Both the position numbers and the translations under genes were made by a program. The notes beneath the pieces were generated by a model, which was not told the origin of the DNA, ran no database searches, and saw nothing but the letters and a program-made list of their open reading frames with translations. From the UHGV virus genome UHGV-0104313: a stretch of DNA of 64,000 nucleotides; one strand, 5' to 3'. Positions 26,625 to 28,944 of the stretch are shown one piece after another; the stretch's first letter is position 1; each line of letters opens with the position of its first letter. This stretch comes from a virus.

Positions 26625-26700
26625 TGGTGGCCCCTACCGGACTTGAACCGGTGACCGTGCGATTATGAGTCGCCAGCTCTAACCACTGAGCTAAAGGGCC
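26625..26700 (-). tRNA. tRNA with CAU anticodon (Ile2/lysidine-type by similarity, or Met)
   Basis: GGCCCTTTAGCTCAGTGGTTAGAGC...CTCATAA...GGTTCAAGTCC...CCA cloverleaf. Confidence 0.7.
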
Positions 26701-26703
26701 GGA

Positions 26704-26811
26704 TTACTGTTTCCTGAGTGCTTCTATGACGCCAGCAATACCGCCTACAACTATGCCAGCAATGACAACGAGAACAATTGGATGCTTGTCAGCAAAATCC
26801 CAGAAGCCCAT
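26704..26811 (-). CDS. small hydrophobic peptide (35 aa)
   Basis: MGFWDFADKHPIVLVVIAGIVVGGIAGVIEALRKQ; between TerB-like gene and tRNA. Confidence 0.3.
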   Translation of the reverse strand: MGFWDFADKHPIVLVVIAGIVVGGIAGVIEALRKQ

Positions 26812-26974
26812 CACTGATCCTTAGAAGCTGTTTTTAATATCGGCCATACCAATGTTACAGCTACTGCTACCAACGCCCCGTCGGATAAAACCGACAGGAT
26901 TGTGCTGGTGAAATCCACCAGCACAGATAGCACGAGAAAAACCAAAGCCAGAATTAGACGTGCTTTTATAACCA

Positions 26975-27400
26975 TCAGATATACTGTTCCAGTGGCAATT
27001 GAAGAGCCTGGGCAATTTTCTTCAATTGCTCCTGCTCTTCTGCCCCAATGCCATCCTGGTCAGCAATATCAATGCATAGGCACAGAACATCTACCGCATC
27101 ATTAGTTCCAGACACGTCAGCCAGTTCACGTAAAGCCTGGGCATTCGCTCGGCGCGGCGAGGCTTCATATTGAGCGCGAATATTGGCGCTCATCTGGGCA
27201 ATTTCACCGGAGAACGGCGCAAAGGCAGGAAGTGCTGCAATGGTTTTTTCCAATACTGCAATTTCTTTCGCATCGCAGGTGCCGTCAGAGTATGCAATGG
27301 AATATGCGCCCCAGACAGTCGCTTCCACCGCATCACGGTTTTCCATCTTCTTGACTCCGCCAGCCGCTTTGCGGAATTTCTTTTTGAGAATGCCGAGCAT
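26975..27400 (-). CDS. tciA: TerB-like tellurite-resistance domain protein, 141 aa
   Basis: TerB-like helical pattern (AVWGAYSIAYSDG...EIAVLEKTIA...LCLCIDIADQDG). Confidence 0.55.
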   Translation of the reverse strand: MLGILKKKFRKAAGGVKKMENRDAVEATVWGAYSIAYSDGTCDAKEIAVLEKTIAALPAFAPFSGEIAQMSANIRAQYEASPRRANAQALRELADVSGTNDAVDVLCLCIDIADQDGIGAEEQEQLKKIAQALQLPLEQYI

Positions 27401-28327
27401 TTATTAACCTCATTACTGGTTGGGAAATAAGGTTGCGGTGCCGGGTGCCTCCCGGTGTCCTTTAGCTGGTTATCCACCGTGGACGGGGGAATAAGGAGAA
27501 ATAATGGACAGATATAACCATTTCCCCGCGTGCGCTTAGCCGCATTCACCGCAACGGAAAGAGCATTCCTGGTGGACCTGTAGATTGGGATATGAACCCG
27601 TTACAGGAGAATGCTCTTACCTGTTACGTGCTCCGTTTCGTGGAGCTAACGGCGGGTGATCGGGCCGCACCAGACTGGACTTATTTCAGCGTTATGCTCA
27701 TGCCAGAGAATCAAACTGTGATGGTCGGTGCTGAACTCCGACACAGGGTTGTAGCAAGCCCCGCAAAGCGCGCACTACTGTAGTTGCGGCACATCAGCCT
27801 GTGCATTCACCACAATGTTGAGAACACTGGTTGTCACGCTGCAACGCAACATTTATTCGTAGATTGGGATATGACCCCGTTACGCCAGTGTTCTCAACGT
27901 TGTAGTGCCGGTTACGGTTCCGGCCAGGCCTCTTCCTCAACGGGGTGTTCTCCATACGGACTACCGTTTATTGGTCGTTCCTGCGGTTTATGTTGTGAAG
28001 CCAGATGCTTATCTTCTGGTTGCTTCAAAGAGCTGCACTTCATCACAACGGTAAGAGCACTCGATGCATTTAAGCCAAGCCCCATAAGGGAGAATGCCCT
28101 TACCTGTTGTGTTGTGATGACCGGTGCTGATCTCCGGCTTGCGGTTATTTCAGACTCTCACGGGCGTTTAATTGCCCCGCCGAACAGCTCTTTTCCGCAA
28201 TAGCTGCAATGTCTTTCGCGCATCAGCCTGCGCATTCATCACAACGGTAAGGGTACTTCGTAGGGATTCGAACCCTCTGCCAAGCTCGGCGATCTCCGAC
28301 GTCGCAAAATACCCTTACCTGTTGTGC

Positions 28328-28403
28328 TGGTGCCGATTAACGAACTCGAACCGCTGACATCCTGCTTACAAGGCAGGCGCTCTACCAACTGAGCTAAACC
28401 GGC
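28328..28403 (-). tRNA. tRNA-Thr (anticodon UGU)
   Basis: GCCGGTTTAGCTCAGTTGGTAGAGC...CTTGTAA...GGTTCGAGTTC...GGCACCA. Confidence 0.75.
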
Positions 28404-28405
28404 AT

Positions 28406-28481
28406 TGGCGATGGTGGATGGATTTGAACCATCGACCCGTTGATTAACAGTCAACCGCTCTAACCGCTGAGCTACACCATC
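28406..28481 (-). tRNA. tRNA-Asn (anticodon GUU)
   Basis: GATGGTGTAGCTCAGCGGTTAGAGC...CTGTTAA...GGTTCAAATCC...ATCGCCA. Confidence 0.75.
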
Positions 28482-28944
28482 ACTTGCCGGGTACGTCTCC
28501 GGCGAGGGCTTCCACCTCCGTATGCTTTTCGGCGCACCGCGCCCTGGCTGCAATTCGGTAACAGGGGATGCATAACCCTGGCTTCCAGCGTGATTAGCGC
28601 TTTCAGCATGACGGGATATACCCGTAAATTCGTGGAACTGTACCCAAAGTGCTGTTAAGCACCGCTGTTACGCTGAAAAGAAAACGCAACAGGAAAGGAC
28701 GCTGACCAACAGATGGCCCCTTCTCGTTCATCTGGTTAATCACACCAGCGCCCTTACCTGTTGTGCCTCCCCGTTCCCTAATACACAGACGGGGACACTC
28801 TGCGGTCGATTTTTTGACGGGGGACGACTCATACCCCGTGGCGTCTGGCTTCTTAGGCCGCTACCATCATCAGATCATCGTTTGCATTTACTTTAATGGT
28901 CAGTTTCTAAACCGCCGCAAAGTCGCTAACCATGACGAAAACCC

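Follow-up and report, generated by a model that had tools for sequence, protein, structure and literature searches.

The DNA stretch analyzed here (the window: a 64,000-nucleotide stretch of the viral genome UHGV-0104313) contains a family of repeats interspersed with the tRNA genes upstream of the helicase gene ban. We found that this repeat family consists of five long hairpins on the minus strand, designated units A to E. With somewhat better than even chances, we take them to be transcribed, strand-specific RNA hairpin cassettes that punctuate the untranslated, tRNA-bearing leader of the C1-controlled ban operon. Signals for tRNA 3'-end processing or RNA stability would be a plausible role and the one that we favor. 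The initial annotation had spoken of "processing signals," and that wording remains plausible and preferred on anatomical grounds (20-bp stems, a 1-nt offset from a tRNA CCA end, and strand specificity). A literature search found no description of these repeats, and the family is a real, apparently undescribed variant of transcribed processing or stability hairpins.

The units share a conserved stem of about 20 bp, with the 5' arm CACAAC(A)GGUAAG... and the 3' arm ...CUUACCGUUGUG, enclosing a hypervariable interior. The interior measures 10 to 90 nt and can be almost any sequence, while the foot of the stem, CACAAC/GUUGUG, is conserved. A short single-stranded (A/G)UGAAU linker lies 3' of each unit and is followed by another small hairpin. 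On the 5' side, small GCCGG...CCGGC hairpins stand ahead of the units and also ahead of tRNA-Asn. At the DNA level, the 15-mer CCCTTACCTGTTGTG occurs in three exact copies, and inverted partners of the repeat motif are also present in the region. With up to 3 mismatches allowed, the 64-kb window gave 5 matches to the 15-mer, all within positions 27614 to 28765, compared with 1.22 expected window-wide. The repeats had been assigned to an intervening gap of about 1.2 kb; the repeats are indeed there, but the gap between tRNA-Thr and the gene tciA (27401-28327) is only about 930 bp long, and the fifth unit, E, sits outside it, upstream of tRNA-Asn. A T-arm-like fragment reported among the repeats was found as AGGGTTCGAATCCCT on the minus strand within unit D (28240-28326), the interior of which carries the T-arm-like AGGGUUCGAAUCCCU. 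Units A (at 27597-27604) and B (at 27876-27883) and a hairpin in the leader of phage mEp460 (stretch 2400-2440) have the interior motif ACGGG(N)UCAUA(N)CCCAAUC in common, which is T-arm-like but without the canonical A58 position.

All five units folded more stably than shuffled sequence, with z scores from -3.9 to -5.7, and units D, C, B, and A were all retained when the 927 nt between tRNA-Thr and tciA were folded as one piece to minimum energy. The z score of that stretch was -8.35 in the tRNA sense versus -2.82 in the antisense. When the stem mismatches were read in the tRNA sense, there were 22 G·U pairs versus 5 A·C pairs (p=0.0015), and this excess favors an RNA helix on the tRNA-sense strand. 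In an alignment of 33 stem sequences, 94.5% of the cells were paired (a figure inflated by the way in which the units were collected, as set out below), and 14 of the 20 pairs had double changes; none of 500 shuffles reached the observed pairing, and slid controls gave 35 to 56%. The stems have 19 to 26 pairs in every type, a length that suits RNase III (about 20 to 22 bp of near-continuous double-stranded RNA). No U-tract was found on any of the five units, and the terminator scan called only 28955-28974, outside the units. When 7 kb was scanned against Rfam 15 at E<=10, the units gave just weak, microRNA (miRNA)-type chance matches.

The same architecture was found in relatives of the window. 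A pattern search of viral contigs for the exact arms returned at least 120 stretches. tRNAs were present in 121 of the 127 loci collected, and the loci were oriented by their tRNAs before hairpins were called. Among the matches listed, there were 288 hairpins, nearly all in the tRNA orientation, with at least 16 unrelated interior types on the common stem; the type of unit E (H0) was found again in 64 related loci, and that of unit C (H2) accounted for 53 instances. In 118 instances among these matches, many of them inherited copies, the hairpin started exactly 1 nt past a tRNA CCA end. This spacing was seen in six tRNA/hairpin combinations: Thr-H1, Thr-H2, Thr-H6, Thr-H9, Ser-H4, and Asn-H1. 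The order of the loci is modular, namely [Asn or Arg-UCU]-[Tyr]-Thr-hairpin ... Ser(UGA)-hairpin ... Ile2. The tRNA set is likewise modular across P1-like elements (D6, P7, Ro157c2YLVW, and IMG/VR loci), Thr(UGU) being near-universal and Tyr optional. P7 has a Ser(UGA) tRNA further on at the locus that is absent from its GenBank annotation, and some relatives have other small membrane or lipoprotein genes in place of the tciABC block.

The hairpins were not confined to P1-like plasmids. Intergenic DNA of two other phages, the lambdoid mEp460 and IME207, a siphophage with a Klebsiella host, was 98.5% identical to positions 28109 to 28251, and two apparent tRNA genes adjoin the cassette there. 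Escherichia coli chromosomes contained 912 matching places. In two annotated E. coli examples, the element lies in a gene-free gap of about 780 bp between a cI-like repressor gene and yfdP, a gap with which the early-left operon begins, untranslated. Many phages have a CACAAC hairpin directly 3' of another structured RNA. Since the element occurs in lambdoid leaders, it is not a P1 oddity but a building block common to repressor-controlled early leaders. The element was not found in CPS-53 of E. coli K-12, and an exact-arm scan of representative genomes gave one Escherichia contig only. The exact-arm form looks restricted to enterobacterial phages.

The initial annotation had described the repeats as lying outside coding sequence, and our coding test agreed. 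In phage P1, two genes, upl and plp, are annotated across the repeats on the plus strand, opposite to the tRNAs. If Upl and Plp were real proteins, the repeats would lie inside genes; we regard this as highly improbable. The two open reading frames (ORFs) are open (63 and 139 aa) and annotated in several GenBank records, and Upl matches PHROG families, themselves built from equivalent annotated ORFs. However, neither has a Pfam match, and RefSeq (PGAP) has no coding sequence under the stretch in P1-like plasmids, nor has the P7 record. Homologous stretches of related loci were compared, and every distinct substitution was assigned to a codon position of the frame as annotated. As controls, tciA and tciB had 3, 0, and 12 and 2, 1, and 8 substitutions at codon positions 1, 2, and 3, respectively, with synonymous/nonsynonymous counts of 12/3 and 8/3. 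The corresponding values were 3, 6, and 2 (2/9) for upl and 6, 7, and 10 (9/13) for the N-terminal part of plp, of which one variant has a stop. A 43-aa minus-strand ORF had 5, 6, and 7 (4/12), with two stops and one frameshift among relatives. The test ORFs differed from tciA and tciB by codon position (p=0.002-0.02; upl, p=0.002; plp, p=0.01-0.02) and by synonymous versus nonsynonymous changes (p=0.0006-0.01). Unlike the controls, upl, plp, and the 43-aa ORF showed no third-position or synonymous bias, and the repeats do not fall inside a conserved protein-coding gene. In addition, a 196-bp insertion or deletion (indel) relative to P1 alters the plp C terminus, and the plp ORF of P1 runs into tRNA-Thr. 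Small minus-strand ORFs (23 and 43 aa) that would start at '(A/G)TGAAT...' after the hairpins had no family match, and the 43-aa ORF was rejected as a gene. The features of the region are listed in Table 1.

Table 1. Features of the ban leader region, with positions in the window
Feature	Position	Strand	Basis and remarks
Unit E, type H0, 81 nt, 203 nt upstream of tRNA-Asn	28685-28765	-	Fold -46.3 kcal/mol, z -5.7
Unit D, type H1, 87 nt, begins 1 nt past tRNA-Thr CCA	28240-28326	-	Fold -51.3 kcal/mol, z -4.2
Unit C, type H2, 68 nt	28044-28111	-	Fold including flanks -49.9 kcal/mol, z -5.2
Unit B, H10-like, 23-bp arms	27808-27907	-	Inverted repeat I1, 91% complementary; -61.9 kcal/mol, z -5.3
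Unit A, H11-like	27547-27631	-	Arms identified; fold -40.2 kcal/mol, z -3.9
Cassette of 196 bp (unit C + spacer), absent from P1	28039-28234		Pairwise alignment with P1
Small GCCGG...CCGGC hairpin, 4 nt upstream of tRNA-Asn	28486-28503	-	Read from sequence; recurring flank
Copies of GCCGG...CCGGC hairpin ahead of units C and B	28119-28138, 27907-27924	-	Read from sequence
Op72/Oban, bivalent C1 operator, overlaps ban promoter	29135-29166		Inverted repeat I4, 16-nt arms; P1 protein_bind/promoter annotation
Intrinsic terminator, 8-bp G+C-rich stem + U8	28947-28977	-	Terminator scan (call span 28955-28974)
tRNA-Asn(GUU), P1 trnA	28406-28481	-	ARAGORN; RF00005, 74.5 bits; P1 annotation
tRNA-Thr(UGU), P1 trnT, CCA encoded, 2 nt after tRNA-Asn	28328-28403	-	ARAGORN, RF00005, P1
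P1 plp counterpart ORF, 139 aa	27784/27871-28203	+	Open; probably not a gene
P1 upl counterpart ORF, 63 aa	27592-27783	+	Open; probably not a gene
Structured 5' leader of tciA	27434-27553	-	Subthreshold match to prophage small-RNA family STnc100 (RF02076)
tciABC block	26704-27400	-	ORFs, Pfam and PHROG families, clear coding signature
tciA, TerB-like	26975-27400	-	Pfam TerB match
tciB	26811-26975	-	Pfam DUF3927 match
tciC, 36-aa hydrophobic membrane peptide	26704-26814	-	ORF
tRNA-Ile2, anticodon CAU, P1 trnI	26625-26700	-	ARAGORN, RF00005, RefSeq, P1 note
Conserved structured RNA candidate, ~175 nt	26435-26612	-	Alignments A4/A5, covariation counts
ban, DnaB-like replicative helicase, distal operon gene	24974-26344	-	ORF; P1/JL22 annotation

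In the mechanism that we propose, the ban operon would be made as a single precursor RNA. The tRNAs, packed 2 to 5 nt apart, would be released by RNase P-type cuts, and the hairpin placed 1 nt after the last CCA would define or block the 3' trailer of the tRNA. The trailer itself would be cut by an RNase III-type, double-strand-specific enzyme or by RNase P at the hairpin base. The stable hairpins may also cap the flanking RNAs against exonucleases, and they may hold about 1 kb of untranslated RNA in a fold on which Rho could not act, which would let transcription reach tciABC and ban. Several points weigh against this reading. Both the cleavage and the identity of the nuclease are what we infer from anatomy alone. 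The six foot pairs CACAAC/GUUGUG are near-invariant while the rest of the stem covaries, which a structural role alone does not explain. Units E, C, B, and A are not beside any tRNA, and a hairpin that abuts the CCA end may hinder, not aid, exonucleolytic 3' trimming. An intrinsic terminator sits between the promoter and the tRNAs, ahead of the hairpin cassettes. Many of the 118 spacing instances are inherited copies and not independent events, and the same is partly true of the U·G wobble that recurs at position 17 of the stem. Furthermore, the units used for covariation were collected by requiring at least 16 paired positions, an ascertainment bias that inflates the pairing figure. The variety of complementary inner arms is real despite this selection for pairing. 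A P1vir RNA-seq preprint gives gene-level counts only.

It could also be proposed that the hairpins matter only as DNA, either as palindromic recombination sites or as an element of the kind of a miniature inverted-repeat transposable element (MITE), a repetitive extragenic palindromic (REP) sequence, or attC, with the RNA structure being incidental. We consider this unlikely. attC sites have extrahelical bases, and the single bulged base conserved in the stem recalls them. The arms are conserved while the interiors are unrelated, cassette gain and loss map exactly to the arms, and unrelated phages carry the same cassette, 98.5% identical, in other genomic surroundings. The 196-bp cassette is flanked on both sides by the same repeat motif, TTCATCACAACGGTAAG, and a given hairpin type occurs with alternative upstream and downstream neighbors. 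The region is also a known hotspot of variability, tciABC being one of eight hypervariable regions of P1-like plasmids, one that its describers left unexplained (PMC9603915). On the other hand, the hairpins are strictly oriented relative to the tRNA genes, and neither the 22 G·U versus 5 A·C pairs nor the strand-asymmetric stability would be expected of a DNA cruciform or a two-strand site. The unit flanks have no target-site duplication, the copies are confined to one locus type and not scattered across the genome, and the P1 indel comprises a whole repeat period, not a hairpin, which fits unequal homologous exchange over transposition. The arm ends, (T/G)CACAAC ... GTTGTG(A/G), have AAC/GTT alone in common with the attC core RYYYAAC/GTTRRRY. 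None of the signs of active mobility (a target duplication, copies dispersed elsewhere, an attC core, or a recombinase linked to the units) was found, and the annotated loci of P1, P7, D6, mEp460, and IME207 have no integrase gene alongside the cassettes. Compared with MITE and Correia elements, the inverted arms are present, but there is no flank duplication and the copies are local within the 64-kb window. In the reading that we favor, the conserved arms would also serve, as a side effect at the DNA level, as homologous-recombination joints at which tRNA/hairpin cassettes are shuffled among P1-like plasmids and lambdoid prophages. Recombination at the repeated arms would explain the arm-bounded 196-bp indel, the flank swaps, and the hypervariability of tciABC. 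If this is right, that hypervariability gains a concrete cause in the hairpin arms.

Two further possibilities concern RNAs that act in trans, and we think each of them quite improbable. The units might be precursors of trans-acting small RNAs (sRNAs), with the stem as a processing handle and either the hypervariable interiors or the arms as active parts, and might in particular be candidates for a GcvB anti-sRNA or mimic. The 5' arm starts with CACAACA, the consensus target of the GcvB R1 seed, which is mimicked by the prophage anti-sRNA AgvB (PMC4104026). The 1.4-kb leader has 5 sense copies of this motif versus 0.15 expected, the 3' arm with its flank matches GcvB nt 58 to 77 at 17 of 20 positions, and the many swapped interior types resemble a target-diversified RNA library. 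The GcvB match lies on the minus strand in units C (28044-28062, CUUACCGUUGUGAUGAAGUG) and D (28240-28258), at up to 17/20. However, 4 of the 5 CACAACA copies are buried in stems, with a probability of being unpaired of about 0.15, and the GcvB duplex energy of -27.6 kcal/mol shows no excess over the mean of -29.6 kcal/mol for shuffled leaders. Once all E. coli sRNAs are taken into account, chance would, by our own estimate, roughly allow for a 17/20 match to one of them. AgvB is a terminated sRNA of 51 to 60 nt at a different prophage position, 3' of PR', with a variable 5' end that carries CACAACA and a conserved 3' terminator (PMC4104026). In the units, the motif is present but paired, there is no terminator, the location is another one, and the Rfam AgvB model (RF02702) gave no match. 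The other possibility, equally improbable in our judgment, is that the cassettes form a phage counterpart of the herpesviral tRNA-miRNA (TMER) genes, that is, a swappable hairpin-RNA library freed by tRNA processing, with the conserved stem as its handle. The hypervariable interiors or the CACAACA/GUUGUG arms would then act in trans on the host, for example, as GcvB sponges or mimics or as decoys of defense systems that target RNA. If true, this would explain why so many interior types are exchanged between P1-like plasmids and lambdoid prophages.

The initial annotation had also suggested remnants of tRNA-gene duplication. We find it very improbable that the units are decayed tRNA genes, whether from duplication or from integration. 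Unit D does contain a canonical T-arm (GGG-UUCGAAU-CCC), with 11 nt common to the T-arm of a tRNA-Asn, and relatives carry extra tRNAs (Ser, Tyr, and Arg) at the same places. However, no unit (27400-28330 and 28685-28765) had an RF00005 match at E<=10 or an ARAGORN call, and 15 of the 16 interior types were no more tRNA-like than shuffled sequence; unit D alone was marginal, its 11-nt match being barely above controls. The conserved part of the units, a long stem, has no tRNA counterpart, and the suggestion was not upheld. A boxA/Nus site was also tried and rejected. The 3' arm UGCUCUUAC, which we took to be like the boxA of lambda nutR, varies among the types (CCCUUAC, UUCUCAAC, and CCUCAAC) and lies in the stem, and this reading was dropped. 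Among the explanations weighed, we prefer the transcribed RNA hairpin cassettes.

A further candidate structured RNA of about 175 nt, widely conserved but unannotated, was found between tRNA-Ile2 and ban. It has an invariant 19-nt core, GGUAGCCGGAAUGUGCAAG, which occurs in at least 120 viral contigs, and four covarying helices in which 92.3% of the cells are paired and 9 pairs have double changes, compared with 30 to 54% in slid controls. Rfam gave no match to it when 7 kb was scanned at E<=10 and when 261 nt were searched alone. In lambdoid prophages and a Stenotrophomonas phage, this RNA opens the early-left leader right after a cI-like repressor gene, and in many phages a CACAAC hairpin directly follows it. 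This RNA may act in cis as an element of the leader, for example, as an antiterminator. It has the position of put of HK022 and HK639, at the very beginning of early-left transcripts of lambdoid prophages that lack N, and its first hairpin is similar to HK022/HK639 put (CGGCG...CAUGCGUCG). Unlike put, it is much longer and has a different invariant core. Homology to put was rejected, as the local alignment score was 18, versus 15.7±2 for shuffled sequence and 55 for the HK639-HK022 control, and overall no similarity to HK022 put or HK639 putL was found. The JL22 ORF gp80 (26412-26555), which overlaps this RNA, is probably spurious.

We also analyzed the locus as a whole. The stretch from 26300 to 29200 was 100% identical to that of phage-plasmid JL22 and 99.4% identical to that of phage P1, and by sequence the window belongs to a P1-like phage-plasmid. 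Along the minus strand, Op72/Oban and the ban promoter are followed by a short leader that ends in a terminator, then by tRNA-Asn and tRNA-Thr, by repeats spanning about 930 nt, and by tciABC, tRNA-Ile2, and ban. The P1 record (NC_005856) maps Op72/Oban with the ban promoter, a 'dicF-like region,' trnA (Asn), trnT (Thr), tciA/B/C, trnI (Ile2), and ban, while upl and plp are drawn on the strand opposite to the tRNAs. The three tRNAs, the TerB-like gene, and their operon context are known, having already been documented for P1. The tRNAs do lie between the operator and ban as had been noted, but the operator is not perfect, since its arms are complementary at 14 of 16 positions (88%). A TerB-like protein and a small membrane peptide had been noted as well; TciA matches Pfam TerB, and TciC is a hydrophobic peptide of 36 aa. 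The intrinsic terminator, a strong one, falls about 170 to 190 nt 3' of the Op72-controlled ban promoter, within the 'dicF-like region' of P1, where the Rfam DicF model had no match. This terminator (28947-28977) implies a short terminated leader RNA or an attenuation step ahead of the tRNAs. The structured leader of tciA, outside the hairpin units, scored 34.4 bits against RF02076 (E 9.6e-5), below the gathering score of 47. A 2026 preprint ties the STnc100 family to the PasD sRNAs of pathogenic E. coli.

ARAGORN and Rfam RF00005 agreed on exactly three tRNAs, all on the minus strand and as first annotated, with RF00005 scores of 74.5, 67.1, and 64.7 bits versus a gathering score of 29. The CAU gene was labeled Met by ARAGORN and is tRNA-Ile in identical RefSeq copies. 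Its best chromosomal matches among all E. coli genomes (88.6 to 89.9%) are annotated as tRNA-Ile and are of the ileX/ileY type, and the P1 record describes it as an ileX-like tRNA-Ile2, 89% identical to ileX. Its body is of the ileX/ileY type, not Met/fMet, and it is predicted to read as Ile after lysidine modification. The codon-usage check proposed earlier was run on 44 long window ORFs, which used ATA at 12.3 and ACA at 14.7 per 1,000 codons, two to three times the values of E. coli codon tables. TCA and AGA, which are decoded by the extra tRNAs of relatives, were likewise raised. The raised use of ATA and ACA fits codon supplementation by the phage tRNAs. According to a recent preprint, the tRNA-Thr(UGU) of the host is destroyed by the defense protein OLD of P2, and some phages are rescued by a tRNA-Thr(UGU) of phage origin. 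The near-universal tRNA-Thr of the locus may therefore have a counterdefense role, and the three phage tRNAs may likewise stand in for host tRNAs that tRNA-cleaving defense systems destroy.

If the preferred reading of transcribed hairpin cassettes is right, two long-standing P1 "genes," upl and plp, should be retired. The modules of the locus (a small hairpin, a tRNA or another structured RNA, a long hairpin, and a linker) would form an RNA "grammar" that P1-like plasmids have in common with many lambdoid prophages, Shiga-toxin phages among them. This grammar would offer sites for studying the maturation of tRNAs embedded in phage mRNA operons, and it also bears on how transcription is carried through a kilobase of untranslated RNA. 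The tRNA repertoire of the locus (Thr-UGU nearly everywhere; Asn, Arg-UCU, Tyr, Ser-UGA, and Ile2 variable) bears on tRNA-cleaving defense. P1 is a reference phage and a workhorse of genetics, and P1-like phage-plasmids spread antibiotic resistance genes.

The closest comparison is the P1 ban operon itself (NC_005856), which is the same locus at 99.4% identity, with the operator, the promoter, the three tRNAs, tciA, and ban as annotated there. The window differs in having one extra 196-bp cassette, and the records inspected annotate no repeats. In the T7 early region and in rRNA operons, RNase III acts on processing hairpins, those of T7 having characteristic internal loops. The units resemble these hairpins in being repeated, about two helical turns long, placed between functional units, and indifferent to the sequence of the tip. 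They differ in lacking sequence similarity to them, in adjoining tRNA 3' ends, and in sitting in pL leaders, and their cleavage is only putative. In E. coli, the hairpin that abuts the CCA of leuX is removed by RNase P or PNPase, and the valV-valW and leuQPV tRNAs are separated by RNase P only. The tRNAs of the window are similarly 2 to 5 nt apart, with a stable hairpin right after the CCA; however, the leuX hairpin is a terminator with a U-tract, whereas the units have no U-tract and transcription must read through them. Like the sponge of the 3' external transcribed spacer (3'ETS) of leuZ and the TMER genes of murine gammaherpesvirus 68, the locus places a tRNA directly before what would be a functional RNA released during tRNA processing. 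The 3'ETS and TMER transcripts release small RNAs, while such release from the units is conjectured by analogy. AgvB (PMC4104026) has CACAACA in common with the units, but its architecture and location differ, and in the units the motif is mostly base paired. Finally, the Correia elements of Neisseria are reported to be bound or cut by RNase III (PMC2649163). In the reading that we favor, the units are like Correia and ERIC elements in having inverted arms of about 20 to 26 bp that fold in mRNA, where they affect processing or stability, and that also serve as recombination substrates. Correia and ERIC elements are spread genome-wide, with conserved interiors and target duplications, whereas the units are confined to phage early leaders, with unrelated interiors and no duplication.

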